The position numbers and the translations under genes were made by a program. A stretch of DNA of 62,058 bases from a virus (lineage: Duplodnaviria > Caudoviricetes): positions 1 to 62,058 of the IMG/VR virus record IMGVR_UViG_3300025127_000028; one strand, 5' to 3'. Within the stretch, counting starts at the first letter, position 1. Every line of letters begins with the position of its first letter. The notes beneath the pieces are model-generated. The model had not been told where the DNA came from, searched no databases, and saw only the letters and a program-made list of their open reading frames with translations. Below are positions 1 to 53,012 of the stretch, in pieces.

Positions 1-182
1 TGGAGTTTGACATATCACATCGTTACAAAGTGTTACGCGAAGTGATTGATGAGTCCAGCCAGAAAGTTTTGGTATTTGTACCATTCAAACATGCGATTGA
101 TATACTTACAGAAAAACTACGCAAGGATGGTATTACCACAGAGGTAATTCGTGGTGATGTATCTGCGCCCAACCGCACACAG
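1..182. repeat. Terminal direct repeat (assembly circularisation overlap), copy 1
   Basis: Identical to 61877-62058 except position 56 (C) vs 61932 (T), a synonymous Ser codon change. Confidence 0.97.
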
Positions 183-479
183 ATATTTAAAACTTTTCAA
201 GAAGCACCGAACCCACGGGTGCTTGTCATCCAGCCCCAATCTGCTGCACATGGTGTCACGTTAACAGCAGCGAATACTGTAGTTTGGTGGGGGCCAACCA
301 GTTCTCTAGAAACGTATGCACAGGCTAACGCTCGTGTTCATAGATCAGGGCAGAAACACAAATGCACCGTTGTTCAGCTTCACGGATCACCCGTAGAGAA
401 ACGTGTTTACACACTGTTAGATAACAGAATAGACGTACACACAAAAATGATCGACCTTTATAAAGAACTACTTGACTAA
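1..479 (+). CDS. C-terminal part of SF2/SNF2-like helicase (continues from 60817 across the join; about 512 aa in total)
   Basis: HELICc motifs KVLVF, AAHGVTL and QANARVHRSGQ; frame is continuous with the ORF starting at 60817. Confidence 0.92.
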   Translation, partial: EFDISHRYKVLREVIDESSQKVLVFVPFKHAIDILTEKLRKDGITTEVIRGDVSAPNRTQIFKTFQEAPNPRVLVIQPQSAAHGVTLTAANTVVWWGPTSSLETYAQANARVHRSGQKHKCTVVQLHGSPVEKRVYTLLDNRIDVHTKMIDLYKELLD

Positions 480-500
480 CACACATACCGTCACTACATT
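472..500 (+). promoter_or_regulatory. Sigma70-like promoter for the replication genes
   Basis: TTGACT-17 nt-TACATT, upstream of the AAGGAG RBS of the 531 gene. Confidence 0.6.
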
Positions 501-530
501 GTATGAAACAATACGTTTAAGGAGAACGGT

Positions 531-923
531 ATGGGCGACATAACCGCAGATAAGCTGACCAAGGCTTACATTAGAATCCGTGAAGAACGGGCGAAGCTGT
601 CGGCAGAATTTAAAGACAAGGATTCTGTTCTCTCTCGTCAATTAGAGAGAATTAAACAAGGACTACTCGACTACTGTAATGCACATAACGTCGAGAGTGT
701 AAGGACTTCCGAAGGATTGTTTTATAGATCTGTAAAGCAAAAGTTTTGGACTAATGATTGGGAGAAGATGCACGAGTTTATTAAAGAGCATCAAGTGCCT
801 GAGTTATTAGAGAAACGTTTGAACCAGACAAATCTTAAACAGTTCTTAGAAGAAAACCCTGAGTCAAAGCCAGAAGGCTTGAATATAGACTCTGAATACT
901 CAATAGCTGTGAGGAAGAAATAA
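531..923 (+). CDS. Conserved phage replication-module protein (130 aa)
   Basis: Strong RBS AAGGAG; coiled-coil N-terminus; lies between helicase and SSB. Confidence 0.75.
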   Translation: MGDITADKLTKAYIRIREERAKLSAEFKDKDSVLSRQLERIKQGLLDYCNAHNVESVRTSEGLFYRSVKQKFWTNDWEKMHEFIKEHQVPELLEKRLNQTNLKQFLEENPESKPEGLNIDSEYSIAVRKK

Positions 924-1213
924 TGGAACCAAAATATGTGCCTATTGAAGATGTAGCTAAACACTTTAGTGTTTCTGTATCGACAATCCGTGCTTGGGTT
1001 CGTCAGGATCAGATTCCACAGGATACTTACATTCGTGTTGGTAACACCTACAGATTCTGCATTCCTGATATATCAGAAGCACTAACAACGAAGAAGACTG
1101 AGACTGTAGAAGAGCCTGTTGCACAAATGTCCACACAGGAAGAAACAGTAGGGTCTAAGGTGGCAACGGATGAAGATGCTGACCTATTAGAACTACTTGA
1201 CGAAGATCAATAA
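923..1213 (+). CDS. Excisionase/MerR-like HTH DNA-binding protein with acidic tail
   Basis: IEDVAKHFSVSVSTIRAWVR...RVGNTYRF winged-HTH pattern; TAATG coupling. Confidence 0.8.
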   Translation: MEPKYVPIEDVAKHFSVSVSTIRAWVRQDQIPQDTYIRVGNTYRFCIPDISEALTTKKTETVEEPVAQMSTQEETVGSKVATDEDADLLELLDEDQ

Positions 1214-1230
1214 GACATCGGGAGAATGAC

Positions 1231-1908
1231 ATGTCTGAAATTGTAAACACAAAATACACTCTAGAAAACGTAGAGGCTATGTGGCCTCGTATTAATCGCA
1301 CCTATAAGTTTGATGCGAAAGAGAAAAAATCTGTACCATGTGATGCGTTTGATGATGGTGCAGCGTACACACTTCAGTTCCGTATGACTGAGGCACAGGC
1401 TAAAGAACTGTATAAGCGTATGAAAACTGCTTATGCTGCGAAACAGGCAGAAAATTCTGAATGGCCTGACAAGTTTCCAATGCCTTTTAAGAAAGATGAT
1501 GATGGGTCATTTACCCACAAAGCAAAACTAAAAGGTGCATATGGAGCGGAAGCTACTCGTAAACCTGCACAATATTCTGCATCTAATAAGAAACTAGACG
1601 ATGATTTCTTGCTGACCAACGGAAGTACAGTTAACATTGCTGTCGTATTTACTCCGTATAATGGGGCGATGGGTGCTGGAGTATCCTTACGCTTAGATGC
1701 GGTGCAGGTTATTGACCTTAAGCCTATGGAAGAACAATCACCGTTTGGTGCGGTAGAGGGTTTTGAAGATAGTCCAAAAGAAGACGACAACCCTTTTGAG
1801 GATGTAACAGTAGATGAACCAAAGAAGGCGGTAAAGAAAACTGCACCTGCTGCACCAGAAAAGGGTAGTGATGATCTAAGTTCTATCATAGACGATTGGG
1901 ACGACTAA
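1231..1908 (+). CDS. Single-stranded DNA-binding protein (T7 gp2.5-like)
   Basis: NGSTVNI..GVSLRLDAVQVIDL OB-fold signature; acidic tail ending DDWDD. Confidence 0.75.
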   Translation: MSEIVNTKYTLENVEAMWPRINRTYKFDAKEKKSVPCDAFDDGAAYTLQFRMTEAQAKELYKRMKTAYAAKQAENSEWPDKFPMPFKKDDDGSFTHKAKLKGAYGAEATRKPAQYSASNKKLDDDFLLTNGSTVNIAVVFTPYNGAMGAGVSLRLDAVQVIDLKPMEEQSPFGAVEGFEDSPKEDDNPFEDVTVDEPKKAVKKTAPAAPEKGSDDLSSIIDDWDD

Positions 1909-1910
1909 TA

Positions 1911-1988
1911 ACCAAAAATACTGCGGCTAGGCTATGGCTGAACTGGGTGTGTACCGACACCCTTGCCGCAGTGCCTCTCGGTTTTGGT
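1911..1988 (+). promoter_or_regulatory. Structured RNA leader of the primase-helicase gene
   Basis: Nested stems ACCAAAA/TTTTGGT, ACTGCGGC/GCCGCAGT and GGGTGT/ACACCC. Confidence 0.55.
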
Positions 1989-1998
1989 GTTAGTTATT

Positions 1999-4809
1999 AT
2001 GGAAACAAGAACTTTTTTAAGGGCAGCACTAGCAAACGAAGGACACTATTGTGTTTTTGCTTCTCGCGCCCATGATGATCGTAGAATACAAAAATTTTAT
2101 GAGTCGATAGATCAGGTAATAGACGCCGCACAAAATATGGATGCGGAAGGTTATGATGCGTACTACGCCCTCGCTACATTCAAAGAAGCAGGGTCACGCA
2201 AAGTAGATAATGTTAAATATTTAAACTCGTTATTTCTTGATCTAGACTGTGGCGCAAGCAAGGACTATGCGACTCAATCAGATGCTATTGGTGCGCTGAA
2301 GCATTTCTGTAAGAGATTGTCCTTACCTAAACCTGTTATGGTAAACTCTGGTCGCGGTGTGCATGTGTACTGGATGTTGAGCGAACCTGTGGGTCTAGAT
2401 GATTGGTTGCCAGTAGCAGAGCGATTGAAAAAACTGTGCGCTGACAACAATTTATTGGCTGATCCTGCGGTCACTGCAGATGCGGCTCGTGTGTTGCGTA
2501 TACCTACAACTCATAATCACAAGGATGACCCTCCTACAGCAGTAAACTTTTTCTTCGAGACTGCTATAAAGCCAGTGGATTTTGATGCGTTTTCTGAACT
2601 ATTAGGCAACAATCCTATACCTGTGCCGAAGCGTTATACTCCTGATGGCAACAATGCAGTCACGACTACACTCAACAGTAATATGGAAAGTACGTTTCGT
2701 GAGATACTACGCAAGACACAACAAGGACGTGGTTGTAAACAGTTACGAAACATAATGGTTAATCAAGAAGAGTGCATCGAACCCATGTGGAGAGCGGGGC
2801 TATCCATAGCTAAGTTCTGTACAGATGCCGATAAAGCTATACATGCAATATCAAAAAAGCATCCAGATTACACAGCAAGCGCTACACAAAAGAAGGTAGA
2901 CCTTATAAAAGGTCCGTACTTGTGCGCTAGATTTGATGAGTATGAGTCAGGTATATGCACCGAATGTCCACATTGGGGCAAGATAAAATCACCTATAACA
3001 TTAGGTAAACGTATACGCGAAGCCACGGACGAGGACAACATTGTTGAGGCTCCAGCCGAGAACCTCCCAAACAACCCCGTAAACCAGTATGTAATCCCTG
3101 CATATCCCCGTCCATACTTCCGTGGTGCAAACGGTGGGGTGTACATCAGGACTGTTAACAGCGATGGAGATCCTGACGAGAAAGTAATATACCATAACGA
3201 CTTATACGTTGTTAGACGACTGCGCGACGTGGAGCTGGGTGAAGCTGTTGTAATGCGATTACATTTGCCTAGAGATGGTGTGCGTGAGTTTACTTTGCCG
3301 CTAACTGCGGTTACTTCTAGAGAAGAGTTCCGAAAATATATGTCCATGCAAGGCGTGGCAGTAACAAAGATGGATGAAATTATGTCGTATACAACAACAT
3401 GGGTGAACGAGCTACAAGCTAACAGCACTGCGGATCAAGCACATAGACAGTTCGGTTGGACTAACGAAGACGGTGGTTCTTTTGTGCTTGGTAATCAGGA
3501 AATATTTAAAGATAAAGTCGAGTTCAATCCACCATCTAATCAGACAGCAGGGTTGTTTGCTTCTTTTGAGCCGCGAGGCACGATGGAGAAATGGAAAGAG
3601 ACCTTAGATTTTTATAATCGTGATGGGTTTGAACTACACCAGTTTGTAGTAGGCACGTCGTTTGGTTCTGCTCTTATGCAGTTCTCACCAATTAAATGTG
3701 CGGCCTTGCATATATACAGCAAGGACTCTGGTGTAGGTAAGACTACCGCCATGGAAGCAGGGGTTTCCGTGTGGGGTAAGCCCGAAGACCTGATTACCAC
3801 AGAGCGTGACACATATAACACCAAGATGAACAGAGGTGAGGTGTATCATAACTTACCGTTATATATGGACGAGTTGACCAACTCACATGGCAGGGAACTT
3901 AGTAACCTTGCATACCAACTTACTGGTGGTAGGCAGCGTGGTCGTATGGCTAGTGGTAGCAATACAGAGCGACATCGGGGTGAGGCTTGGAGTTTGTTAT
4001 CCGTTACCACAGGCAACACCAGTATTGTTGAGCGTATCAGTATTATAAAGGCTATGCCCAAAGCAGAAGCACAGCGCATTTTGGAGTGCCGTGTAAAACG
4101 TATGCACTTTGAAACAAAGGAAGAGACAGATAAATTTTCTGCTGCAATACAAGATAATTACGGACACGCAGGCATAGAATACGTGCAATACCTAATGAAT
4201 AATTTAGAGGACGCAAAGAAACTGTTAGCAGAAGTACAAGCACGGGTGGACGCTGAAGCCAACCTTACTGCTGAAAACAGGTTTTGGTCTGTGCTTATAG
4301 CAGCAACAGTAACAGGACTTATACTTGCAAAACGTGCAGGACTTGTGAACTATAATACTAAGAAAGTATTTAAATGGGGCGTAGAGCAGCTTAAAGAAAA
4401 CAAACGCCAAGTCGAGGACATGAGTGTAGGTGTAGAAGAAGTGCTTAACGATTATATACATGAACACTGGAGTAACGTACTGTGGATCAAGAGTACAGAT
4501 GATTTGCGCAAGCAAAACACAGACGCTGAGTCGGTTGTAATCCCAGAAGCACTACCTAGAGGTAAGCTGGTTGCTCGTTACGAAACAGATTTAAAACGTG
4601 CATATCTAGTGCCAAAGCCATTGAAGGCTTGGTGTGGTGAACAACAGATAAACTATAACTCGTTTGTATACGATCTTAAATCTAAGTTGGGGGCGCGTAA
4701 GTCTAAGATGCGTTTGAGTAAAGGTACGCACATGAACCTACCGCCAACTGATGTAATTATTGTCGATTGTTCAGTGGAGAGGATAGATGGAGAAACGATA
4801 CAAGCGTGA
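1999..4809 (+). CDS. Primase-helicase (RepB/AEP-type primase plus DUF927-type helicase)
   Basis: FLDLD and VNSGRGVHVYW primase motifs, Cys cluster, Walker A SGVGKTT, YMDE; likely start is ATG 1999 (METRTF). Confidence 0.85.
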   Translation: METRTFLRAALANEGHYCVFASRAHDDRRIQKFYESIDQVIDAAQNMDAEGYDAYYALATFKEAGSRKVDNVKYLNSLFLDLDCGASKDYATQSDAIGALKHFCKRLSLPKPVMVNSGRGVHVYWMLSEPVGLDDWLPVAERLKKLCADNNLLADPAVTADAARVLRIPTTHNHKDDPPTAVNFFFETAIKPVDFDAFSELLGNNPIPVPKRYTPDGNNAVTTTLNSNMESTFREILRKTQQGRGCKQLRNIMVNQEECIEPMWRAGLSIAKFCTDADKAIHAISKKHPDYTASATQKKVDLIKGPYLCARFDEYESGICTECPHWGKIKSPITLGKRIREATDEDNIVEAPAENLPNNPVNQYVIPAYPRPYFRGANGGVYIRTVNSDGDPDEKVIYHNDLYVVRRLRDVELGEAVVMRLHLPRDGVREFTLPLTAVTSREEFRKYMSMQGVAVTKMDEIMSYTTTWVNELQANSTADQAHRQFGWTNEDGGSFVLGNQEIFKDKVEFNPPSNQTAGLFASFEPRGTMEKWKETLDFYNRDGFELHQFVVGTSFGSALMQFSPIKCAALHIYSKDSGVGKTTAMEAGVSVWGKPEDLITTERDTYNTKMNRGEVYHNLPLYMDELTNSHGRELSNLAYQLTGGRQRGRMASGSNTERHRGEAWSLLSVTTGNTSIVERISIIKAMPKAEAQRILECRVKRMHFETKEETDKFSAAIQDNYGHAGIEYVQYLMNNLEDAKKLLAEVQARVDAEANLTAENRFWSVLIAATVTGLILAKRAGLVNYNTKKVFKWGVEQLKENKRQVEDMSVGVEEVLNDYIHEHWSNVLWIKSTDDLRKQNTDAESVVIPEALPRGKLVARYETDLKRAYLVPKPLKAWCGEQQINYNSFVYDLKSKLGARKSKMRLSKGTHMNLPPTDVIIVDCSVERIDGETIQA

Positions 4810-5014
4810 GTACGTAAGAATAAGTGACAGATGTTGGGGTAGCCTAGAGTTGCGTGATAAAGCACAAAGAGAACAAATGTTCGCGCCGGTTAAATCAAAT
4901 TTACCTAATGATGCATTTGCAGACGATGATCCAGAAGCTGACTATGATATACATAAGAAATATTACCCCCAACCTACGATGGTGTTAGGTCATGCAGGGA
5001 GTTCTGAAGACTGA
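4787..5014 (+). CDS. Hypothetical protein (75 aa)
   Basis: GGAGAGG RBS; overlaps the primase end. Confidence 0.5.
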   Translation: MEKRYKREYVRISDRCWGSLELRDKAQREQMFAPVKSNLPNDAFADDDPEADYDIHKKYYPQPTMVLGHAGSSED

Positions 5015-5216
5015 TGATCTTAACCCTGATGGAGTACGGGTTGTGGTAAATTGGGATAACATGGTGGTCAGCGCATCTATATTTGTTCCGTGCGTTGACA
5101 CTGACAAGGCTATAAAACAGGTAAAAAATATAGCATTAATAAAGGGTTGGGAGATAGTGACCCGTGTTACAATAGAGAATAATAAATTTGGCTTGCGGGT
5201 TTGGAGAATGACGTGA
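4992..5216 (+). CDS. Hypothetical protein (74 aa), possibly small DNA-binding
   Basis: SIFVP...GLRVWR pattern seen in small phage proteins; last ORF of the + arm. Confidence 0.65.
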   Translation: MQGVLKTDDLNPDGVRVVVNWDNMVVSASIFVPCVDTDKAIKQVKNIALIKGWEIVTRVTIENNKFGLRVWRMT

Positions 5217-5227
5217 TAACTTGTATA

Positions 5228-5292
5228 GGACAGTTTCCTTCGTTGACTGTCGTTCTCCCTTAACTAGCCCCTCGCTTCGGCGGGGGGATTCT
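5228..5292 (+). ncRNA. Candidate trans-acting anti-RBS small RNA
   Basis: Putative promoter TTGCGG (5193) and TGnTAACTT (5214-5222); hairpin GACAGT/ACTGTC; CU-rich seed; UUCG terminator hairpin. Confidence 0.5.
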
Positions 5293-5294
5293 TT
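5268..5294. terminator. Intrinsic terminator between the convergent arms
   Basis: CCCCTCGC-TTCG-GCGGGGGG followed by ATTCTTT. Confidence 0.75.
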
Positions 5295-8200
5295 AATCTG
5301 CGATGCCTAAATCCTGCCACAGCGTTATGGTGTCATCATACTCTGCTGCATCTTCCATAAGTTCATTTCGCATACGAGGATTGATTACGATGCCATGATG
5401 CATACGTGAAGTGGTGCGTTGGTGCGCTTTCATAGACTGCTTGAACGATTTATTTGTAATTGCTGTAGATGGGAACCTTTTGTTGTATTTAATTATTTCT
5501 TTCATAATAGCTTCCATTTCGGAAGTATCGCCTTGCCTTGCTGCTACATAATATCTTTTATATAGCTTGCTTTTTTGTTCGCCAGCGGCACGCTCTTTTC
5601 TTTTGATACGTGCATTCTCTTGTAATTGTTTGGTATATTCTGCGGGGGCAAAACCTAGCAACTGCCCGAATACATGCCCTGCTCCAATGTCTCCTACTAT
5701 GGGGTCGCCCCGTAACGTGTTAGCACCTTCTGTAGCAAACCTATAACTTTTTAAGACGTTACGTATAGCTGCTGGTGACATTGCTTCAATACCACGCTCT
5801 ACATTACCGTCTGCTATCATGCCTACACCACGCTCCATGTTTAGCGCGGTTCCCACCACAGGACCACCAACCATTTCAATGGCATCATAAAACAGACTTT
5901 GATCTTTTTGGACTAGGCGATCACGGAAGATAAGATCGGACAGACCCATACGACTTGCTACATCCACACCTAGTAAATAGTTACCAAGTCCACCATAGAA
6001 GCCCTCACCCAAAAACTTACGCATTGTAGTGTCAAAGTCATCTTCGTCTTCATCTCCGAATATAAGGTCTATGACGGAACCAATAGCCCCCATAAGTGGA
6101 ATACCTTGCGCTCCACCTATAATACCTGCCATGCCCACAGTCCCTGCTAACTGTTTACGAGCTACTAATTTATCTGCAGGAGAACCTTTGATTGCTTCCT
6201 TTGATAGTTTGGCAAGGTGATACGTCATGGATATACCAAAACGTTTAAACAAGAACATAACTTTACCAATACCCCTTTGCGCATATCTAGGTGCGCCAGT
6301 AGCGATGGCACCGCCGTTGGTAAGTTCTGTTACATAGATGGCTTTTTCTGCGGCTTCTGTTCTTGCGGCATCGTTTATAGTTTTGCCAGCTTTGCGCATT
6401 GCGCCTAATTCTAAATCATATGCAGTCATCAATGCTACTTGACGGTTCATACGCTCACCGTGGTGGAATATCCATCCAGATACAGCGCCTATCTTTCTCA
6501 TTGGACTATCTATTCTGTCCATGTCCAACATGTCATAAGTTATTGAACGGTTTAACTGCCCCATGCGCCCAGCTACTTCAGCTAGTACCTTATACTCCTT
6601 AACTTCTTTTGGTGTGTTGGGGTCGTCAAAATCATAATTGTCCAGTGATGGTGTAGCGGATGTAGTTTCTTTTATTTTACCATCAGGGCCAATCGTTTCT
6701 GAGGTGCGTTTAAAACCACTATTTTTAAACATGCGCATGGCTCTACCCGTGGCTTTCATAGTTTCAGAGTAACCATACTTACCGCCAAGGTAGGGCATAA
6801 CCACCATCGGTAGTTGTGAGAAGTTAACCACGGCAGAGGATATGTTTGCGCCAAGGGTCATAACAAACCCACCAGTTGTAAGTGCTTGCGCCCAGTTTTC
6901 TACGTTAGGGTTTTTAGCCCAGTCTGCACGTTGATCTAACTCATTAGCCAAAAGAACAGAAGTATCATCATTTTTTTCTACAGTCTTGACATGCTCTTTT
7001 ATTTCTTTCTGCACGGCAGATATTTTTTGTCCGTACTCCATTTGCACAAGCTGTCGTGATAGTGAGCTAGTTCTCTTGCGAAGCGCACCAATGGCATCTC
7101 GCTCAAACCCAAGCGTGCCTTTACGATTTCTAAATGACTGTGCAAATGACCGCTCTGGAAGAGAGTCAAGAAATAACCGCATTATCTGTTCTTTGACTTC
7201 GGCATCTACATTGTTTGTCTGTAATGTCTGAAGCACGTCGTTAACAAATGATGTAGGTGGCGCCTTATCGTAACTGACTTCTGATAGATTAGAGAACGAT
7301 TGAAAGTCTTTAGCCTCTGCATCAGGGTCTGCTTCCATAACCCTTTGCGCTTCTCTTCTATCTGTCTTACTTTCAAACGCTTCAACATAAAACTCCATGT
7401 TACCTGTGCGAGGGTCTCGCGCACTATAGGATAACCAGTACCCGCCACTACGAGTTAACGGGAAGTAAGGCTCAATAACACCGTTGTCGTAGAGAGCATT
7501 GTATACCTCTGCAAACACTTTTTTACGTGTAGGCTCATCAGAAATACCCTCGTCAATCTTGCTTTTAAGTATCCTACCCATCTCGTCATAGAGTTTTTTG
7601 TAGGTATTACGCATAGACTTGTAATGAGCTTGCCCTTCCTCACCAAGTGAGTTCCAATCGTCTTGCATGGCTTTCCATGCGTCTAACTTTTCTCCAGTGT
7701 AATCACTTTTGGGCTTTGAGGGATCAACCTGCTCTAATGTACTGTTGTAGATTACATTATTGAAAGCGTCTAATTTATCTTGATTCTTGCTGCCCCACGC
7801 AGACACTCGTTTGACCACTGGCTCAATCATACTGTTCATCTCAGTAACTTTGCCACTTGCCTCAAACGTCAGTTTTTCTAGTTTAGTTGCCATGGGTATG
7901 CGGGCTTTTGCAACATCGACTAAGGCATTGATTGGTAGCAACCCGAGCATAAAGTTCTTTGCCTTGTCAGGGAATCTATCTGCAAGAACTTCTTTTACAC
8001 GTTTTATGCCAGCAGCATCCCATGTGGGGGTATTCTTAACCATGTTATCAATGATTGCTTTAGCCTTATCTGGCACCATGGTTTGCATGTAAAGTCTGCC
8101 AGCACCACGAGATTCTGGCGCAGGTGCAAGCATGGCTTCAATTAGCTTATCTGCTTGGTTAAGTGCAGAGTCCACAGGCTTTGTCTGCATACCCATGGCA

Positions 8201-11200
8201 CGGCGTAAAACGTTAGCAACAGAATTAAAGAACCTTTGCAATGCGCTGATAGGTTCACCTTTTACGTTTATCTGCGCTAATTTTTGTTGGAACTCTGGGT
8301 TGCTGAATGTCTCCGCTACAAATTCATCTACGTTCTGTGACCCGTATGCAGTGTCTAATGAGTCTTTCACTTCATTAAATAATTTGGTGAGTTGTTTGGT
8401 CAACGGGTGTGACTTGTTAGCCAGTGTCTGTGATGTCGCAGCGTGTGTCATCTCATGCAGAATAGTATGTGGGTTGATACCAGTTTCTGCGTTGAGTGTT
8501 ATTGTGTTGGTCGCGGGGTCAAACATACCAGCCACAGGGTTACCAGATTCATCAGCAACGAACTGCCTTACTTGCACTTTTGTATCGCCAGCAACTTTAG
8601 CCAACGCCCCTGCAAGTTGTGATATACGCCCACTAGGAGATGTAGACTGTATCGCCCGGAGCGCTTCTACTAACTTACCTTGTCTTAACAAGTTACCAAT
8701 CACAGGATGTGTCGGTATGTCGAGACCTACTACAGCGTTCTCGCGTAAATAGTCAGGAAGCAAGTCTAAATCTTCTTGTGTAAACTCAAGAAACTCACTT
8801 TCAGCTTTAGCACGGCGTTCTTGTGCTATATCTTTTTTAATCAGTTTATCTCTTAGCTCTTGTTCTTTTGCTTTCTTACGCTCAGTCTCCACAAAATCTA
8901 CGCTACTATTCTGTCGTCTAATTGAATCTTCTAACGACTGTTGGTGCATTTCAACTAACTTATCTACAGCCGCGTTGGTTTCTGCACTTAAATTTTCTTT
9001 TACCCATTGCCTAGCACGAGTGGCTTCTTTTTTACCTGTATTTGCAAAATACTCCTTTTCGCCCTTACTCATATCCGGTGTGGATCTAAATACATCTTTC
9101 GCAAATACTGTTTCATGCGCTATAACTTCTAACGCATCGTTTGGGTTTTCTTGTTTACTAAAATAAGTTTTTGCGGCTCTAGCTTTTGTTACACTCGCCT
9201 TTTCCCCTGTCTGTTTATCTTTTACTTCAGTCTTTATTAACTCAAGTATTTTAGTGTCATCTGCTTCAGTAGTATTTACATCTAGTGATATAGATTCTGT
9301 GTCACCATCCTTATTTATAAATGTGGCCTTTGGCACTTCCTTAAACTTGCCAGTGTAAAATTTAACGTCCGCTGCTTCTGCTTCGGGAGAAGTCGGGTCT
9401 GCGGCTATTCTTTGTTTTCTTCGTATGTTGGACAGGCTTTTTATTTCTTCTGCAATTAATTTTTGTATTTCTTTTTTAGTTTTAGGTACTTTTTTAGGCA
9501 CAGCTTTCTTTATTGTCGGCTTTTTAGGTGCGGCTTTCTTTGCCTTTGGTTTTGGCTCTGGCTTTGCTTCTGGCTCTACCTGTGGCTGTACCTGTGGCTG
9601 TACCTGTGGCGCAGCTTTTGCCCTTACTGCTTCCTGTGGTCTCTCAATAGCTACCGCTGGTGCTTCAGCAATGGGTTCAACTGTAGGGATGGCAGTGGGT
9701 GTGACCGGCTCTAGTGGAGTTGCGCGGCCTGCTGTTCTTCTTGTAGGAGTTGCGGTTTCTACCTGTGGCGCAGTTTTTTCAGCTAATATATTAGGTAGAT
9801 TATCTTTTAAATTTTTAAAGTCTGGACTTTTCCCAATAACTTTGTTGTCGTTATTTGTGTCTACAGCTTCCCAATCTACACGCTTTCGCACCACTATGCT
9901 GGGTTGGTTTTCTACAACATATTCTGCGTTTTCTGGAGATATACCACCTCTCATATCTCCTGTTTTTGCTGCTTTGGTTTTTCTTAATTTAACAGGTTTC
10001 TCTGTATCTGGCGCAGCTTCTCTAGATGCGAATAAATCGAGCTGCTCATTTATCTTCTCCTTCGTCTCTGGAGATACTTGAGGGTTTGCCGCATGCTCTC
10101 TTAACTGCTGTTGTACTTCAGGCGTGGTAACATCTTTACCTTTAATGCGATTACGGAGAGGCGACGCAGGCTTGATAGCCAAACCATCCATGTCCTCTTC
10201 AGTTACGCTGCGAGTCTGGGCAGCAGTGAGCCTTTCAGGCACAAACGGTACTTCGGTGCGTGGTTTTCTCTCACCTTCTACTACTTGAAATTGTTTAGGT
10301 TTTGCTTCGGGTTCTTCCACTGGTGCAGGACGTTCCGCCCGTTGCACATCTATTGCGCGTTTGATAGTGTTAGTTTCTGACTCGTTAGGTTGTGTATTAG
10401 CGATACCTTGAGCTTCAAGCGCACGGGAAAAATTCTTAGTTAGTGTATCTTCTTGTTTTGTAGGAGTATTTTCAATTACGTCTTGTAATATTGCTGTGCG
10501 TCGTCGTTCTGTGGCTTGCTGTTGTTGTGTGTCTAACTGCCCTGCAATAGTTTCAACGTCGGAAGCCGCACGAGTTTCTTGTTCTTGCCTAAGTTCAGCT
10601 TCTGCTTTGGCATCTTCATCTAGCATAGCCTGTATTTGTGCAGTCTCATCAGCATCAACCATCTCTCGTAGCTGTGCGGACTCTGCTTCTTCAATCATAT
10701 CTGGTTGCACAGCTCTTGGCTGTGGAGTAGTGGGTACTCGTTGGTCAAAAAGATCTAGCTGTGTATCTTGCTCTGGCGCAGTTCCTAACTCGCTATCAGG
10801 GAACAACTCTCCTTGATCAGGTGCAACTACAGGAGCTGTGGGGGCCGTACCAAGGTCTTCACCTGCAAACAACTCACCTTGTGGATCAGGTTCAGCTTGA
10901 TCTGTTGGGGTAGGACTAACACCCCTACGTTTAGTAAGAGCATCAACAAACAGTTGTGTGATAGCTCCAGCACCTGCGCCATACCCTGCGTTTTCTGCTG
11001 TGCCTGCAAGAAGACTGACTTCTTCGTTATATCCAGACTCAACAAGATTCTGAAGTAAGTTTGCTGTAGCTTCTTGTGCGCCTTCAAGTCCACCTGTGGT
11101 AAGAGCATTACCTACACGCTCACTAATGGTCTCTACTTTATCCGGCCCAAGTTTTTCTAAAACCTTACCAACCACAGGTACATCAACAGCTTTGACAAAC

Positions 11201-11829
11201 CTAGTAATAGGTAAAATTTCAAGGATGCCAATAGGGGCAGCTTTTAGTGCGGCAGAAGATCGTTCTTCTTCAGTGGCTCCAGCAGCTCTAGCACGCTCAC
11301 TACCTTCACCAGCAGCGGCACTAACACCAAGCAACCCAGCAACACCTGTGGCAGCGGCAGTAGCGGCGGCGGCGGGCGCAGCATAGGCAGTAAGCGCAGC
11401 AGGCACAGCAATACCAGCAACAGACCCCAATGCCCTTGAAAGGTTATATGTTATAGAGTCTTCGTCTCCACCTTCAGGGCGTATAGCTTCTGCAGTGGCT
11501 TTAATTTTATCTCGTACTGTGTTTTCAGCTTCTTCATCAAGAAGTGCAGCAATACCAAGTGAGGCTGTTTCACCCACATCAATGGCACCAGCACCAAACC
11601 CTTTAGCAATATTTTCAAAAAACCCAGCGTCTTCTTCTTCTTTTTGATTATAGAGCGCATTTATTGAGGCAAGTTGTTTTTCTTCAAGATCTCTTTGGAG
11701 GGCAGCTGTTTCGTTTTCACGGAGTTTGTTTTGCACAATCGCCATGATAGCTTCAGGAGAAGCATCTGCGGGACCACGAACTCTATGCACGACTCCATCT
11801 GCATCTCTTACTTTATGTACAACACTCAT
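5293..11829 (-). CDS. Giant internal virion/ejection protein of large-polyvalent type with a zincin metallopeptidase domain (2178 aa)
   Basis: GMFDP..ILHEMTH..DEFVAE HExxH motif; Gly/Ala hydrophobic segments; last gene of the structural arm. Confidence 0.7.
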   Translation of the reverse strand: MSVVHKVRDADGVVHRVRGPADASPEAIMAIVQNKLRENETAALQRDLEEKQLASINALYNQKEEEDAGFFENIAKGFGAGAIDVGETASLGIAALLDEEAENTVRDKIKATAEAIRPEGGDEDSITYNLSRALGSVAGIAVPAALTAYAAPAAAATAAATGVAGLLGVSAAAGEGSERARAAGATEEERSSAALKAAPIGILEILPITRFVKAVDVPVVGKVLEKLGPDKVETISERVGNALTTGGLEGAQEATANLLQNLVESGYNEEVSLLAGTAENAGYGAGAGAITQLFVDALTKRRGVSPTPTDQAEPDPQGELFAGEDLGTAPTAPVVAPDQGELFPDSELGTAPEQDTQLDLFDQRVPTTPQPRAVQPDMIEEAESAQLREMVDADETAQIQAMLDEDAKAEAELRQEQETRAASDVETIAGQLDTQQQQATERRRTAILQDVIENTPTKQEDTLTKNFSRALEAQGIANTQPNESETNTIKRAIDVQRAERPAPVEEPEAKPKQFQVVEGERKPRTEVPFVPERLTAAQTRSVTEEDMDGLAIKPASPLRNRIKGKDVTTPEVQQQLREHAANPQVSPETKEKINEQLDLFASREAAPDTEKPVKLRKTKAAKTGDMRGGISPENAEYVVENQPSIVVRKRVDWEAVDTNNDNKVIGKSPDFKNLKDNLPNILAEKTAPQVETATPTRRTAGRATPLEPVTPTAIPTVEPIAEAPAVAIERPQEAVRAKAAPQVQPQVQPQVEPEAKPEPKPKAKKAAPKKPTIKKAVPKKVPKTKKEIQKLIAEEIKSLSNIRRKQRIAADPTSPEAEAADVKFYTGKFKEVPKATFINKDGDTESISLDVNTTEADDTKILELIKTEVKDKQTGEKASVTKARAAKTYFSKQENPNDALEVIAHETVFAKDVFRSTPDMSKGEKEYFANTGKKEATRARQWVKENLSAETNAAVDKLVEMHQQSLEDSIRRQNSSVDFVETERKKAKEQELRDKLIKKDIAQERRAKAESEFLEFTQEDLDLLPDYLRENAVVGLDIPTHPVIGNLLRQGKLVEALRAIQSTSPSGRISQLAGALAKVAGDTKVQVRQFVADESGNPVAGMFDPATNTITLNAETGINPHTILHEMTHAATSQTLANKSHPLTKQLTKLFNEVKDSLDTAYGSQNVDEFVAETFSNPEFQQKLAQINVKGEPISALQRFFNSVANVLRRAMGMQTKPVDSALNQADKLIEAMLAPAPESRGAGRLYMQTMVPDKAKAIIDNMVKNTPTWDAAGIKRVKEVLADRFPDKAKNFMLGLLPINALVDVAKARIPMATKLEKLTFEASGKVTEMNSMIEPVVKRVSAWGSKNQDKLDAFNNVIYNSTLEQVDPSKPKSDYTGEKLDAWKAMQDDWNSLGEEGQAHYKSMRNTYKKLYDEMGRILKSKIDEGISDEPTRKKVFAEVYNALYDNGVIEPYFPLTRSGGYWLSYSARDPRTGNMEFYVEAFESKTDRREAQRVMEADPDAEAKDFQSFSNLSEVSYDKAPPTSFVNDVLQTLQTNNVDAEVKEQIMRLFLDSLPERSFAQSFRNRKGTLGFERDAIGALRKRTSSLSRQLVQMEYGQKISAVQKEIKEHVKTVEKNDDTSVLLANELDQRADWAKNPNVENWAQALTTGGFVMTLGANISSAVVNFSQLPMVVMPYLGGKYGYSETMKATGRAMRMFKNSGFKRTSETIGPDGKIKETTSATPSLDNYDFDDPNTPKEVKEYKVLAEVAGRMGQLNRSITYDMLDMDRIDSPMRKIGAVSGWIFHHGERMNRQVALMTAYDLELGAMRKAGKTINDAARTEAAEKAIYVTELTNGGAIATGAPRYAQRGIGKVMFLFKRFGISMTYHLAKLSKEAIKGSPADKLVARKQLAGTVGMAGIIGGAQGIPLMGAIGSVIDLIFGDEDEDDFDTTMRKFLGEGFYGGLGNYLLGVDVASRMGLSDLIFRDRLVQKDQSLFYDAIEMVGGPVVGTALNMERGVGMIADGNVERGIEAMSPAAIRNVLKSYRFATEGANTLRGDPIVGDIGAGHVFGQLLGFAPAEYTKQLQENARIKRKERAAGEQKSKLYKRYYVAARQGDTSEMEAIMKEIIKYNKRFPSTAITNKSFKQSMKAHQRTTSRMHHGIVINPRMRNELMEDAAEYDDTITLWQDLGIAD
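9578..9610. repeat. 12-bp tandem repeat (about 3 copies) encoding PQVQ linker
   Basis: ACCTGTGGCTGT repeated. Confidence 0.85.
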
Positions 11830-38031: not shown

Positions 38032-38766
38032 TTAGCCATTAGCATAGTCAAAAGCTGCACCGTGGATTTTAATCAATATTTTTCCTGCGGTATAAGCTGC
38101 CTCTGTTGCATCTCCTGATGTCAGATATAGATACTTTTTGCTCAGAGCTGCTAGTGTAGCCCCACCATCTGCTTCCGCATAGAACCCAAGTGTCAAATCT
38201 CCATTGTTTAGAAGAACAGTCCCACTTGTAACGGCTGCATTTTCAGCAGTTGTACCTGTTGCAGAACAAACAAGATTGATATCTGGATCACCGCCAGTTG
38301 GAACCTCAAGACAAGCAAACTCTATTAGGTATGGTATACCGTTCACTGCGCTTGTGAGTTCTGCAATATACGCATTTGCTGCACCGCCATCAGTACCAAT
38401 AACGTCATCGGCTGAACCACCAGATGCTAGACCGCCATGCAGATCAATAAGAATCGTAGTAACGATGTCTCCACCAATCTTGTTGATGAACGTGTTAATC
38501 GCTGCATCAGCAATACCAGAACCATGTGCGTTGGGGGTAACATTGAAGATTGTAGCTGCAGTGCCTAAACTAGCATTGTTTGCGCCAGTGGTTGTTCCTG
38601 CTGCAACAATATTGTCTCTACCAGATGTAGCGACTTTTTGAACTTCAAGAACGCCATCGCTACTAGCGTTTAATTGTTCTGTAAAAGTTCCCAAAGTGGA
38701 GCTTTTAGTTACAACTTTAAAGCCATTTTCGGAGCGCACTGCACCGTTAAAAGTAGTATTAGCCAT
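38032..38766 (-). CDS. Capsid-associated structural protein (244 aa)
   Basis: MANTTFNGAVRSENGF N-terminus; directly downstream of the capsid gene. Confidence 0.7.
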   Translation of the reverse strand: MANTTFNGAVRSENGFKVVTKSSTLGTFTEQLNASSDGVLEVQKVATSGRDNIVAAGTTTGANNASLGTAATIFNVTPNAHGSGIADAAINTFINKIGGDIVTTILIDLHGGLASGGSADDVIGTDGGAANAYIAELTSAVNGIPYLIEFACLEVPTGGDPDINLVCSATGTTAENAAVTSGTVLLNNGDLTLGFYAEADGGATLAALSKKYLYLTSGDATEAAYTAGKILIKIHGAAFDYANG

Positions 38767-38818
38767 GTCTATCTCCTGTCGTGGCTAGTGTCAGCCACAG
38801 TATGCGGCTGTCAGGAAT
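38760..38818 (-). ncRNA. Structured RNA downstream of the capsid gene (possible Mu-gpT-DE motif)
   Basis: TCCTG/CAGGA outer stem and CAGCCGCA/TGTGGCTG inner stem; location fits the described Mu-gpT-DE context. Confidence 0.45.
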
Positions 38819-47472: not shown

Positions 47473-47798
47473 GTAGGTTGGGACTCCTACCGGGGGGTGT
47501 TCCTGTGTGAGAGGGGGTGGGGGGTCCAAACTGAGAAAATACCGATTAGTTCGTGGAAATTAGTAATATATAGATGTGTATGTAACTAACAACACATAAC
47601 GGGTCATAGGGGGCGGGTGGGTCAACGATATGCCAGATTTAGCCATTACCTGCCATAGAACTAAATGTTAGTGTATACACTAACAAATAATAACACGTTT
47701 ACAATCTATCTATATCAAAACACGTTAGGATGTGCCATATTACAACCATCGAAGGGACATACCGTTCCTTCACTAGCGACATAAGAAAGGAATTCATT

Positions 47799-48323
47799 AT
47801 GTCTAATTTCGTAAACGCTAAGTTGGCTAGCGCAATCGCCAACGCAGTCTCAGCGACCACCAAGTCGCTACGTGCAACTCAAACAGCCATTGACTTGTTC
47901 GTGGCCGATGGTTGGAAGTCTACTGACTTGATCTCGCCGAAAGGCAAAGACAGCAAGTCTACTGCCAGCGAAGAAAAGTTCGCCGAACTCAACGCGGCAA
48001 TCGTTGCTGGCTTTACGGCCACCACTCAAAAGCTTTTGGAGACTAACACCAAAACGCTAACTGAGACCGGCAAGGCTAACAAGCGATACTGGCAACAGCA
48101 GATTGGCGCTAGACGCAACGACTTCAAGACTGCTCTATCCAAGCGTGAAGATGCGAAGAACGGCGGCGCTAATACCAAGCGGTCTGATGCGCAACGTATC
48201 GCCGACAATCTCAACGACTGCTCTAAGGTTATTGAGAATTCGGAAGGCATCAACGGCGTTGATCTGATCAAACTGGCCGAGGCGATCAAGACTGCCAAGT
48301 CTGTCTTACACGCTAAGTTCTAA
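47799..48323 (+). CDS. First early protein, hypothetical (174 aa)
   Basis: AGAAAGGA RBS before ATG 47799; followed by a terminator. Confidence 0.8.
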   Translation: MSNFVNAKLASAIANAVSATTKSLRATQTAIDLFVADGWKSTDLISPKGKDSKSTASEEKFAELNAAIVAGFTATTQKLLETNTKTLTETGKANKRYWQQQIGARRNDFKTALSKREDAKNGGANTKRSDAQRIADNLNDCSKVIENSEGINGVDLIKLAEAIKTAKSVLHAKF

Positions 48324-48330
48324 TCATACT

Positions 48331-48361
48331 AGGCAGGGATTTATTCCCTGCCTTTTCTTTT
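48331..48361 (+). terminator. Intrinsic terminator
   Basis: AGGCAGGGA-TTTAT-TCCCTGCCT then TTTCTTTT. Confidence 0.85.
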
Positions 48362-48378
48362 ACGAAAGGTAACAAGTT

Positions 48379-48558
48379 ATGACTGGTTTATATTTGAATG
48401 GTGAGCCGATGATCTGGATGTCGGTTACTGAAGATGAGTTTGGGGATCTGCGTTTTGTGGCATCGCCTGAGTTTAACGATTACTTAACTACAGTTTCGGT
48501 TGCGCATCAACATATGGTTGACCGCACTATACCGGCTGACTATTGGGAGAAAAGATAA
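48379..48558 (+). CDS. Small early protein (59 aa; not in the ORF track)
   Basis: GAAAGG RBS; MTGLYLNGEP..YWEKR; TAATG coupling to the next gene. Confidence 0.65.
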   Translation: MTGLYLNGEPMIWMSVTEDEFGDLRFVASPEFNDYLTTVSVAHQHMVDRTIPADYWEKR

Positions 48559-48734
48559 TGAAAGTTTGGGGATATATCATTGTGGTGTTTGGTATGCTGT
48601 TCTTTTTGGCTGGTGTATCAATAGAAGAAAACATACGCAGCCCATGGCCTTGGATATGGGTTGCTATTCACGTCATTTGGATAATGGTTTCGATGGCTGT
48701 TATGGGCATCGGATATCTAATGACAAGACGTTAA
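48558..48734 (+). CDS. Small two-TM early membrane protein (58 aa)
   Basis: GGGAG RBS; two hydrophobic helices. Confidence 0.65.
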   Translation: MKVWGYIIVVFGMLFFLAGVSIEENIRSPWPWIWVAIHVIWIMVSMAVMGIGYLMTRR

Positions 48735-48738
48735 GATC

Positions 48739-48768
48739 AGGCAGGGATTTATTTCCCTGCCTTTTTTT
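48739..48768 (+). terminator. Intrinsic terminator, near-duplicate of 48331
   Basis: AGGCAGGGA-TTTATT-TCCCTGCCT then a T run. Confidence 0.85.
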
Positions 48769-48881
48769 GTGCCTACGAAACCAGTTCTCGGAGTAGCGTT
48801 GAGCCATCACACGCATGATTACACGTTTATGTTAGTGACACACTAACACGTTGATACCAGTTCTCGGAGCCGCGTTGAGCC

Positions 48882-49240
48882 TAATGTTCTAATGTTCTTT
48901 ATAATGTTCCGTAATGTTCGTTTTTTTAGACCGCTTTGAGAACATTATGTTTTCGTGTCGGTTTGTGACAACGCATGATAAGCAATAGAGTTTCTTCCCT
49001 ATCAGCTTTTATCTATTCTTCTATTTTTATATAGTTTTATTTTTTAGTAGTGTAATGTTCGTTTTTTCAAATAATGCTTAGTCTTGTTAGTGACTCACTA
49101 ACACGTCAACACGAATGTTCTCATCTCTGAGAGGGCGCCGACGCGGATGTCCAAAACCCTCAAAAAACGAACAATAGAACATTCCTGTTTTTCCAATGCG
49201 TTACACGCCCCCACCACAGAACATTACAGAACATTACAGT
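48882..49240. other. Putative replication origin (iterons plus AT-rich tract)
   Basis: AATGTTC/GAACATT repeats in both orientations around a T-rich tract at about 49005-49050. Confidence 0.5.
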
Positions 49241-49282
49241 ACACTACACAGATACACACAATACAACACGTTTCCACATCAT

Positions 49283-49311
49283 TTGACATTGCTGATAATA
49301 TTTGCTATAAT
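49283..49311 (+). promoter_or_regulatory. Consensus sigma70 early promoter
   Basis: TTGACA-17-TATAAT with extended -10 TG. Confidence 0.9.
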
Positions 49312-49367
49312 ATAAGGACAGTCAGAGTTTGACTGTTTTACAACCTGTTGTCATGAAAGGACACATT

Positions 49368-49433
49368 ATGCAAAACGTAACCACAAACCAAAATGTTAGT
49401 GACACACTAACCACAGTTTACGGAATTCCGTAA
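49368..49433 (+). CDS. Possible 21-aa leader peptide
   Basis: GAAAGGA RBS; MQNVTTNQNVSDTLTTVYGIP. Confidence 0.4.
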   Translation: MQNVTTNQNVSDTLTTVYGIP

Positions 49434-49705
49434 AGAAAGAGAGAGACCAATGAAGAACTACGCACACATAAAAGACCCCAAGCAGCAGCGCATCGCCATG
49501 TTGCTTGACCACCTCAAGCATCTGGATGACCTCGGCTGGACACAGCCGTCACACTCATATGCAGAGGACATTGCTACAGCTGTAGCAGAGACCATCAAAG
49601 AACTGACCGCTCTCGGTCATGTTCACACAACACACTAAAACTTGTCACACAGGAGAACGACATGACACAGATTACCTCAACCGAAACTTTACGGAATTCC
49701 GTAAA
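49417..49705. repeat. Perfect 18-bp palindrome TTTACGGAATTCCGTAAA, 2 copies
   Basis: 49417-49434 and 49688-49705. Confidence 0.92.
49450..49638 (+). CDS. Hypothetical early protein (62 aa)
   Basis: Purine-rich RBS; downstream of the strong promoter. Confidence 0.65.
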   Translation: MKNYAHIKDPKQQRIAMLLDHLKHLDDLGWTQPSHSYAEDIATAVAETIKELTALGHVHTTH

Positions 49706-50582
49706 CCCTGCACCATCTACACCAAGCATTGGATCATCTGCCATGCTATGTGAGTTATCCATCTCAACATGGACAGGACGCAAGAAAGATCGCAAAGCAT
49801 CAGAAGATGTTACCGATGCAAACTTTGCGGCATCCGGTGTTGCCTCTGTACACAAGAAGCTACTCGCTGATTGCCAAGAACTTGTTGCAGTACAGAAGTT
49901 CACAGCTAACAGCCGCAACATGCACTACGCTATGACAATGCCGTGGTCTGACACAGGCTTGCGTCTTTTGCCAACGGCTCAATACTTCAAGTATCATCAA
50001 GCAATGACTGACATACAGAACGAGTATGACAGGCTTGTTAACACGTTTCTACAAGGTTACGAATGGGAGATCACCCAAGCATCCGCAAAGCTAGGTGACT
50101 TGTTCAATCGTGACGAGTATCCATCAATCGACAGCTTACGCAACAAGTTTGGGTTCCGCTTGTCGTATATTCCACTGCCTGACGCTGGTGATTTTCGTAT
50201 CGACATTGGCAATGAAGCAACGGAACAAGTCAAGGATCACTACCAATCCTACTACTCGACACAGCTAAACAACGCAATGAATGACGTGTGGCAACGCACC
50301 CACAAGGCGTTATCTGCTATGTCCGAGCGACTCGACTACACACCATCCGAGGACAAGAAAGTATTCCGCGACACGCTCGTGACCAACGTCCTTGACATGG
50401 TAGAACTTCTTAACGTGTGTAACGTATCGGGCGACAGCCAGATGAACGCGGCACGTATGAAACTTGAAGATGCACTACGCGGTGTCAATGCTGATGCACT
50501 GCGCGAGGATGCTCACCTGCGGTCAGAGACTAAGCGTACCGTGGATGAGGTCATCAAATCACTACCATCAATCGGCATGTAA
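49662..50582 (+). CDS. DUF3150-like protein (306 aa)
   Basis: LSISTWTGRKKD..MPWSDTGLRLLP; helical; upstream of the AAA/VWA pair (family assignment from memory). Confidence 0.55.
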   Translation: MTQITSTETLRNSVNPAPSTPSIGSSAMLCELSISTWTGRKKDRKASEDVTDANFAASGVASVHKKLLADCQELVAVQKFTANSRNMHYAMTMPWSDTGLRLLPTAQYFKYHQAMTDIQNEYDRLVNTFLQGYEWEITQASAKLGDLFNRDEYPSIDSLRNKFGFRLSYIPLPDAGDFRIDIGNEATEQVKDHYQSYYSTQLNNAMNDVWQRTHKALSAMSERLDYTPSEDKKVFRDTLVTNVLDMVELLNVCNVSGDSQMNAARMKLEDALRGVNADALREDAHLRSETKRTVDEVIKSLPSIGM

Positions 50583-53011: not shown

Positions 53012-53012
53012 G

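Follow-up and report, generated by a model that had tools for sequence, protein, structure and literature searches.

The stretch of DNA analyzed here (the window) is a complete IMG/VR virus record of 62,058 bases, IMGVR_UViG_3300025127_000028, which comes from an uncultured marine phage and whose genes are organized in two arms. The + arm, running from 47799 to 62058 and on from 1 to 5216, contains the replication and recombination genes, referred to below as the early genes; the − arm, from 47842 to 5293, contains the structural genes and a gene for a protein of 2178 amino acids (aa). The two arms converge on a gap of 76 bases (5217–5292) at the end of the early arm, and it is the element at this junction that concerns us. 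To judge by its sequence features, this element is most likely a small gene on the + strand, encoding an RNA of ~65 nucleotides (nt) that would extend from about 5228/5229 to about 5296.

The Element at the Convergent Junction

The last open reading frame (ORF) of the early arm (4992–5216, +; 74 aa, of no family) ends in W-R-M-T-stop, with its TGA at 5214–5216, and these final codons hold both a promoter-like motif and a potential pairing partner of the element. A weak −35-like hexamer, TTGCGG (5193–5198, +; offsets −21 to −16), precedes the −10 hexamer by 18 nt; it occupies Leu-Arg codons, so its conservation cannot be separated from that of the coding sequence. There follows an extended −10 motif of the form Y-R-T-G-n-T-A-n-n-n-T (CGTGATAACTT, 5212–5222, +, with TGATAACTT at 5214–5222), which overlaps the stop codon. 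Transcription is predicted to start at 5228–5229, 6–7 nt past the −10 hexamer and at the foot of a 5′ hairpin (5229–5251, +) whose arms, GACAGU at 5229–5234 and ACUGUC at 5246–5251, enclose an 11-nt loop, TTCCTTCGTTG. The segment that we call the seed is UGUCGUUCUCCC (the string TGTCGTTCTCCC, 5248–5259, +), and the bases from 5252 to 5267 are single-stranded in the predicted RNA. A terminator scan placed an intrinsic terminator, CCCCTCGC-TTCG-GCGGGGGG, at 5268–5287 (+), with a stem of 8 base pairs (bp) and a UUCG loop; it continues to 5296 with AUUCUUUAA after the stem, where relatives have an uninterrupted U run, and the stop codon of the convergent gene for the 2178-aa protein (5293–11829, −) abuts it. 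The predicted RNA of 69 nt has a fold with z = −2.96, which 2 of 200 shuffles equaled.

The + strand was assigned to the element because the hairpin is kept by means of G-U pairs and because U runs follow the terminator on that strand only. Thus the hairpin variants of L037/L025 and L068 (relatives are cited by handles beginning with L or G) pair via G-U, as is possible only in a + strand RNA, and that of L005 pairs via A-U. In the end of the ORF, upstream of the predicted start, lies the pairing partner GGAGAAUGACG (5203–5213, +, with GGAGAATGAC at 5203–5212); in the fold of a read-through RNA it pairs with 5248–5258.

An earlier annotation made from the letters alone (the sequence-only reading) had proposed a small RNA (sRNA) at this place, and all of the strings that it listed, from TTGCGG, the −10 motif and the hairpin arms to the seed, the terminator, the pairing partner and the target sites, were found where it had put them. 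Its account of the hairpin loop, given as TTCCTTCG, has to be corrected to the 11-nt loop described above, and the promoter and the pairing partner, which it had situated in the gap, belong to the last codons and the stop of ORF 4992–5216.

Elsewhere on the early arm, a TG-extended promoter that agrees fully with the sigma-70 consensus (TTGACA-17-TGnTATAAT, 49283–49311, +) lies upstream of a small ORF at 49450 and of a DUF3150-like gene or operon; with a 12/12 match, it is evidence that host-type promoter motifs are present on the early arm.

Conservation of the Module among Relatives

The nearest cultured phage is Pseudomonas phage Rollin, with a primase identity of 30%; at its junction the arms overlap by 4 nt, leaving no gap and no element, and a blastn search with 4700–5800 gave zero matches among 50,697 phage records. 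Relatives were collected by a search with the primase, from which the best 80 of 270 confirmed were used, together with 20 loci found with the primase of a distant relative. Homologues of ORF 4992–5216 were found in 86 of these 100 loci, and blastn of 5150–5320 gave matches in 36 of the 80. Among 71 distinct ORF-end sequences, ~46 have the whole module, ~22 have none of it, and 3 are cut by contig ends (hand count). The module, consisting of a stop-overlapping TGATA, the hairpin, ...UCUCC..., and the terminator, is thus carried as one unit. Relatives without it have TAA or TAG as the stop of the ORF, lack TGATA, and have the convergent gene directly afterward, so that the arms abut.

The individual parts are similarly persistent. 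The 11-mer TGTCGTTCTCC occurs in 21 of the 27 distinct relatives of the first alignment, with variants in two (L003 and L065) and absence in four (hand count), and it is also found in G004, whose primase is 49% identical in its C-terminal part. When 23 representatives were folded, 20 had the hairpin before the seed and 22 a terminator hairpin with a U run, the stems of which differ among clades and always pair; the 23rd, G010, had been clipped by the rule that set the end of the element, and its terminator is visible in the sequence. In the predicted folds ...UCUCC... is unpaired. An RNAalifold run on a MAFFT alignment of 24 elements did not recover the hairpins, because the variable loops were misaligned, and a CUCC/GGGG pairing with hardly any covariation was its sole proposal; single-sequence folds and a reading of the alignment were used in its place.

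The promoter-like motif was studied in 52 distinct elements of the relatives, retrieved with a search pattern that fixed only TGG[AC]G and TGATA. A purine precedes the TG at −1 and a pyrimidine stands at −2 in 52/52 (the latter being T in 35), and the T at +8 that closes TAnnnT is present in 48. Positions +5 to +7, inside the hexamer, and +9 to +14, after it, vary freely, and GACAG is held at +15 to +19 from the T of TGA in 41–47 of the 52. Exactly 10 nt of freely varying sequence separate the promoter-like motif from the hairpin in these relatives. We infer from this pattern a TG-extended −10 promoter whose transcripts would start 6–7 nt further on, where the hairpin begins (5228/5229).

On a FastTree phylogeny of the primases, the groups without the element are nested among those that bear it; the tree is midpoint rooted, which leaves the direction of change unproven. 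An ancient presence of the element with at least two losses would be the simplest reading of such a distribution. When IMG/VR was scanned with a pattern that joins the hairpin arm and the seed, 65 matches were obtained, 40 of them in the same context and 25 elsewhere. The latter may be due to chance, since a rough estimate (17-base pattern, 12-step gap, assumed collection size) predicts tens of matches.

Some of the relatives L038–L045, L049, L059, L069, and G001 have an extra GC hairpin between the seed and the terminator, and in many of this same group the hairpin loop reads CACCUCC, identical to the 3′ end of 16S rRNA and a possible second anti-Shine–Dalgarno (anti-SD) site. A loop of this kind (CCUCC/CACCUCC) was considered as a second anti-SD seed in the core of the module and rejected: it is common, yet absent in the window, L157, L185, L164, and G004.

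Complementarity to the Start Sites of Early Genes

When a 14-nt seed was compared with the 72 called genes, the best start regions were all on the + arm. The strongest was that of the gp2.5-like single-stranded DNA-binding protein (SSB) gene, which starts at 1231 (−20.6 kcal/mol, 11 contiguous bp), followed by that of the DUF3150-like gene at 49662 (−18.8 kcal/mol, 11 contiguous bp) and that of the Mu Gam-like gene at 531, which encodes 130 aa (−13.4 kcal/mol, 11 contiguous bp, 2 of them G-U); the best late gene reached −13.3 kcal/mol with 7 contiguous bp. With longer flanks, the predicted SSB target (1219–1236, +, site 1220–1231) forms 12 contiguous bp, one a G-U, at −25.3 kcal/mol, and the duplex spans −12 to +5. 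The DUF3150-like target (49651–49667, +, site 49651–49662) pairs by 11 contiguous Watson–Crick bp at −20.6 kcal/mol; many relatives, with protein identities as low as 65–72%, share its start stretch, tgtcaYacaGGAGAACGACATG, and so does G004. The predicted Gam-like target (516–538, +, site 521–531) offers the 11 bp, including 2 G-U, already mentioned. The sequence-only reading had proposed these three start sites and a fourth, GGAGAACG (60807–60814, +), which precedes an ORF with a GTG start that is still open at the end of the record after at least 414 codons; that reading called the ORF a helicase. The complementarity of the first three stands, and the fourth, with only 8 nt, is a weak candidate.

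A plain count of 12-mers with up to two mismatches gave 5, including the element itself, against 3.04 ± 1.58 in shuffled controls, 16/100 of which reached 5. As this was not above chance, a flank-shuffle test was used in its place: the UCUCC core of the seed was kept, its flanks were shuffled to give 400 controls, and the mean energy of the three best start sites was taken. On the arm of the element, the window scored −19.9 kcal/mol against −15.7 ± 1.3, and 2/400 controls were as good; at its late-arm start sites there was no excess, 374/400 controls being as good or better. The ribosome-binding sites (RBSs) of late genes thus do not match equally well, and the pairing beyond the SD core that the sequence-only reading had noted does exceed that of shuffled flanks, in same-arm (early) genes only. 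The two arms also differ in how many GGAGAA-type RBSs they carry, with 7 on the arm of the element and 3 on the other in the window, 10 and 0 in G001, and 10 and 2 in G004.

Two further features of these start regions may be recorded for their own sake. Stems that enclose the SD and include the AUG can be drawn at 1210–1240 (AGACAU...AUGUCU, SSB) and 49641–49668 (UGUCA...UGACA, DUF3150); their arms are conserved and their folding energies are not above those of shuffles (z of −0.15 for SSB and −1.19 for DUF3150). The DUF3150-like gene also exists with an alternative N-terminal cassette, in which the site is absent, in six relatives (L082, L083, L085, L090, L092, and L094, compared with 49640–49720 of the window), the start regions reading GGAGAACGACATGACAC... 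or AAAGGACACATTATGCAAAAC... The rest of the gene is 92–99% identical in four of these six loci, 82% in L092, and 72% in L094. Such a pattern suggests recombination at the 5′ end of the gene.

Recurrence and Co-variation across Genomes

The flank-shuffle test was repeated in eight further whole or partial genomes, making nine in all, and six of the nine (the window, or G000, along with G001, G004, G005, G008, and G010) had a same-arm excess over shuffled flanks, while late-arm start sites had an excess in 0/9. Not one of the 400 same-arm controls was as good as the real seed in G001, G004, or G005, and a single one was in G008 and in G010; the corresponding late-arm counts were 94, 161, 118, 166, and 28. 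The predicted targets vary among genomes and every one is an early-arm gene: DUF3150, a 296-aa protein, an endonuclease-like protein, and a nucleotide-kinase-like protein in G004; an HNH-endonuclease-like protein in G001; and in G005 an exonuclease, an unannotated ORF of 511 codons at the "helicase" position, SSB, and the Gam-like protein.

The seeds of the relatives fall into classes, and several lineages with an altered seed have a matching altered start site. In L024, ACAUGUCGUUCUCCC faces GGGAGAACGAUAUGU of SSB in 15 contiguous bp that reach the AUG, and in G010, UCGUGCUAUUCUCCAAA faces UUUGGAGAAUGGCAUGA of SSB in 17 bp (15 Watson–Crick and 2 G-U, −26.6 kcal/mol). The G008 seed forms 16 bp with SSB, 3 of them G-U; that of G005, CAUGUUCUCC, forms 10–11 bp with GGAGAACAUG of SSB, and its AUCAUGUUCUCC forms 12–13 bp with GGAGAACAUGAU of the Gam-like gene. 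Shorter matches of the same kind are UUUCUCC with GGAGAAA in G007 and CUCUCC with GGAGAG in G009. Opposite the SSB site, four positions distinguish the seed of the window from that of G010. Of these differences, two are wobble-neutral, one is a two-sided change from U-A to C-G, and at the last a C·U mismatch in the window becomes a G-U pair in G010. Similarly, the G-to-A change in the L003 seed faces a U in the SSB site of L003. In the SSB duplexes of the window, G010, and G008, all six of the six non-Watson–Crick positions are G·U in the sense orientation, which favors RNA–RNA pairing over a shared DNA site.

This co-variation was also assessed by permuting seeds among representatives. For SSB (18 representatives) the true assignment scored −297.7 against −246.1 ± 11.5, with 0/20000 permutations as good, and for the Gam-like gene (17 representatives) −259.9 against −236.1 ± 9.1, with 116/20000 as good. 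Anchored ungapped runs beyond GGAG gave 4.54 against 3.81 ± 0.27 for SSB (21/5000 as good) and 3.38 against 2.89 ± 0.2 for the Gam-like gene (41/5000). The energies of tree rows L040, L042, L043, and L045, in which the seed rule had taken the loop ATCTCC, were left out. Strong SSB pairings are found in about three lineages of the primase tree, namely the clade of the window, the G008/G010 clade, and G005; the seed–target covariation looked for on the strength of the sequence-only reading is present, and in separate lineages.

Weighing the Evidence

Taken together, these observations lead us to consider it probable, with some reserve, that the gap encodes a trans-acting antisense sRNA that blocks the translation of SSB, the DUF3150-like gene, the Gam-like gene, and other early genes. 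A number of facts weigh against this interpretation. Three of the nine genomes, G006, G007, and G009, have no excess over shuffled flanks (112, 204, and 249 of 400 same-arm controls as good; 340, 279, and 255 for the late arm). The primase tree resolves the positive results into no more than about three to four independent lineages, and as the rows are related by descent the permutation p-values overstate their independence. In a large clade (G001, L038–L069, and L056–L060) the seed is identical and the SSB and Gam-like sites pair for just 1–2 nt beyond GGAG; as targets, these two sites are not conserved in the clade. The seed has changed in L003 with the DUF3150 start site unchanged, and L005 has kept its seed with a DUF3150 gene on its contig that has the other N-terminal cassette, without the site. 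In the window itself the −10 hexamer, TAACTT, and the U tail AUUCUUUAA are weak and the −35 is poor, and both the YR before TGA and the AGR codon would also fit a helix formed in cis. Finally, two metatranscriptome runs of one sample (X19 and X24) contain contigs that are 90–99% alike to the window over most of 1–10000, including 5013–6275, and some of these span the whole gap (5043–6275 and 5013–5441); a discrete transcript was not seen among them. Contigs cannot show ends, strand, or level; those across the gap fit read-through, convergent transcripts, or carried-over DNA equally well, and were counted neither for nor against.

Among the alternatives, the one that survives best, although we think it unlikely, dispenses with trans action altogether: the seed and GGAGAAUGACG (5203–5213) would form a long stem before the terminator, in the 3′ untranslated region (3′-UTR) of an early polycistronic mRNA, where it would protect the 3′ end or aid termination, and the complementarity to start sites would be a by-product of a coding stretch that resembles an RBS. 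The sequence-only reading had entered such pairing as a caveat, and justly so, for the minimum-energy fold of 5190–5300 contains this 11-bp helix (−37.6 kcal/mol, z = −2.41, 3/200 shuffles). The Arg codon is AGR, which gives GGAG, in 40/46 distinct relatives with the element and in 2/22 without it (hand count); R-Y-R, the pairing partner of UGU in the seed, is retained in the last sense codon; and the RNA-library contigs that cross the gap would be expected of such an mRNA. However, the 3′ arm of the helix is nearly invariant while its 5′ arm varies, with zero two-sided changes, six element-bearing sequences have CGN and have lost the GGAG, and beyond 7 bp the helix is absent in most clades. 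It is, moreover, weaker than the trans pairing in 13/17 representatives (−12.0 against −26.6 in G010, −6.9 against −16.7 in G006), and it leaves unexplained both the fixed TGnTAnnnT motif with its fixed spacing and the complementarity of the flanks to start sites kilobases away.

A second alternative retains the anti-start-site function and changes the molecule that carries it: the stretch would act within the long early transcript, either as its 3′-UTR or as a processed 3′ fragment, after the manner of the 3′-UTR-derived sRNAs that RNase E releases, and not from a promoter of its own; its partners would be start sites on that transcript or on sister transcripts. All predicted targets are on one arm, and the position of the element as the last feature of that arm would suit this, as would the weakness of the −10 and −35 in the window and the continuity of RNA-library contigs over 5013–5441. 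We nevertheless rate it as quite improbable, since the TG-extended −10 and its exact spacing from the hairpin, present only where the element is, point to a start of its own. In other respects its predictions overlap with those of an independently transcribed sRNA, and only the chemistry of the 5′ end, triphosphate or monophosphate, would separate the two.

Still more doubtful, in our judgment, is the possibility that the RNA acts mainly on host mRNAs, its matches to phage start sites being of secondary importance. The invariance of the seed in clades whose SSB and Gam-like sites lack complementarity to it could be due to a fixed host target, and there is a precedent in the sRNA PreS of phage lambda, which is reported to act on the host gene dnaN (bioRxiv 10.1101/2024.10.31.621285). 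Against this, same-arm flank complementarity is significant in 6/9 genomes, including G001, a member of the invariant-seed clade, and seeds change along with phage start sites.

Lastly, a DNA-level site (an operator or a recombination or replication signal, inverted in start regions) or a translated mini-ORF of 16 codons is highly improbable: although GACAG...CTGTC is an inverted repeat, and almost all element-bearing relatives have an RTGA start–stop overlap after GGAGAA-N4, the repeat arms stand anywhere from 5 to 16 nt apart, the seed–target differences and hairpin changes are G·U-compatible on one strand only, and where the window reads ACT GTC GTT CTC, L005 reads TGT CGT TCT CCT and its ORF runs through the terminator. 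The mini-ORF of the window (GTG at 5213 to TAA at 5263, coupled to the upstream stop) was accordingly rejected, its frame and length changing between close relatives.

Other Features of the Window

The early arm also contains a gene for a helix-turn-helix protein at 923 and, at about 2000–4809, the primase/helicase. Between the SSB stop and the primase, a nested hairpin (1922–1977, +), ACTGCGGC...GGGTGT-GTACCG-ACACCC...GCCGCAGT, is conserved in many relatives; the TTG start listed at 1963 lies within it, and the true primase start is probably the ATG at 2000 (METR..., as in G005). Near-identical intrinsic terminators, AGGCAGGGA...TCCCTGCCT and then a T run, occur 400 nt apart at 48331–48353 and 48739–48762 (+), after short early ORFs, and a G-rich non-coding stretch with GGGGGG runs (47478–47530, +) lies between the divergent arms.

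On the other arm, the 2178-aa protein has a DarB-like C-terminal part, its last 700 residues matching DarB-like antirestriction families (PHROG 10089, E 2.8e-85); it is likely an injected protein that counters host defenses. At 38764–38816 (−) there is a Mu-gpT-DE RNA of Rfam (74.6 bits, gathering score 49), which ends 2 nt into a gene for 244 aa (ATG at 38766) and covers the 5′ leader of that gene.

Comparison with Known Systems

The region 4500–6000, compared with Rfam 15 at E values up to 10, gave three matches at the level of chance (14.4–15.9 bits, where gathering scores are 41–80), and with the whole window at gathering scores the element was unmatched, the Mu-gpT-DE RNA being the sole match. 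Among the papers listed by full-text searches of the literature (main texts), a description of such an RNA was not found.

The c4 RNA of P1/P7 serves lysogenic immunity and a single operon (icd-ant); it is processed out of the transcript that also carries its target, which lies downstream, and it pairs through two short segments. This phage small RNA, which is not encoded opposite its target, pairs around the RBS of a phage message and blocks its translation, and the complementary sequences are thought to sit in exposed loops (PMC12197685). It is the closest working analogue; the element is likewise predicted to block phage RBSs in trans. Unlike c4, the element stands last on its arm, downstream of all its targets, with an apparent promoter of its own and one continuous pairing stretch, and its several predicted targets are replication and recombination genes; a relation in sequence or in Rfam was not found.

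Other phage RNAs differ more. The sar RNA of P22 and the OOP RNA of lambda are short, terminator-ended, cis-antisense RNAs that lower the expression of phage mRNAs, sar covering the ant RBS; both are transcribed opposite their targets, to which they are fully complementary. The targets of the element, in contrast, lie 4–18 kb away on the same strand with partial complementarity of 10–17 bp, and what lies opposite it is confined to the end of the ORF and the 3′ end of the region of the 2178-aa gene, with no predicted target. PreS (LPR1) of lambda is a trans-acting phage sRNA tied to DNA replication; host genes are reported to be its targets, among them dnaN, which it activates by making the RBS accessible (bioRxiv 10.1101/2024.10.31.621285). 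The element differs in that its predicted targets belong to the phage and that its pairing would cover the RBS.

In its design the element resembles bacterial sRNAs, with a 5′ hairpin, a single-stranded anti-SD seed, a Rho-independent terminator, and multiple targets. Hfq-type sRNAs of enterobacteria and RsaE/RoxS of the Firmicutes have C/U-rich anti-SD seeds, terminator ends, and multiple targets. The element differs from these in being phage-encoded and in its predicted action on the phage's own genes. Functionally, an analogy can be drawn with RegA and gp32 of T4, proteins that repress the translation of early genes, that of the phage SSB in particular, at the start site; the repressor proposed here would be an RNA, and homology is not implied.

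A Possible Mechanism and its Significance

The conservation of the module, its predicted architecture, its complementarity to start sites above that of controls, and the co-variation of the two partners emerge from the present analysis, and the following sequence of events would account for them. Host RNA polymerase would start at the TG-extended −10 promoter over the stop codon of the last early-arm ORF, as the conservation of this motif suggests. The RNA would then adopt its predicted and conserved fold: the 5′ hairpin first, then a CU-rich stretch that stays single-stranded (GUUCUCCC, together with the hairpin's 3′ arm), and at the end an intrinsic terminator. The single-stranded stretch, with the aid of a chaperone if there is one, would pair with the SD, the spacer, and the start codon of mRNAs from the same arm; in the window these would be the messages of the gp2.5-like SSB, the DUF3150-like gene, and the Gam-like gene, to which the relatives would add exonuclease-, endonuclease-, and HNH-like genes. 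Binding of the 30S subunit would be blocked, and as the RNA accumulates the translation of the targets, and perhaps their stability, would fall. In a read-through mRNA, GGAGAAUGACG at 5203–5213 would tie up the seed, so that only the short RNA would be active.

The sRNA proposed by the sequence-only reading is thus partly supported, through the conservation of the module, the complementarity, and the covariation, and to the same degree we can speak of a new family of phage small RNA candidates that pair with the early start sites of their own phage. A collective shut-down of early translation, and an action on host messages as well, may follow from such pairing. In a more tentative vein, which we hold to be possible though less likely than not, the RNA and the shared address of SD plus spacer would constitute a private translational code of the phage lineage, by which the early genes are switched off together. 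In the role that the protein RegA plays in T4, a ~65-nt RNA would have co-evolved with the start sites of genes for SSB, recombination, and replication, and would have persisted in phages whose primases are <50% identical, the clades that lost it having fused the two arms.

To our knowledge, phage sRNAs that regulate the phage's own lytic program are barely documented, the characterized cases being mostly concerned with lysogeny or with host genes. If the interpretation favored here is true, a whole family of sRNAs would exist in dozens of marine phage contigs, and the natural variants of seed and target would be ready-made compensatory pairs from which the rules of RNA–RNA recognition could be read. 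The combination of a stop-overlapping promoter, a hairpin, an anti-SD stretch, and a terminator at a convergent junction would provide a signature with which to search uncultured phages. For the phages themselves, it would mean that the translation of early genes, and the dosage of SSB in particular, may be governed by an RNA instead of a protein of the RegA or gp32 kind.

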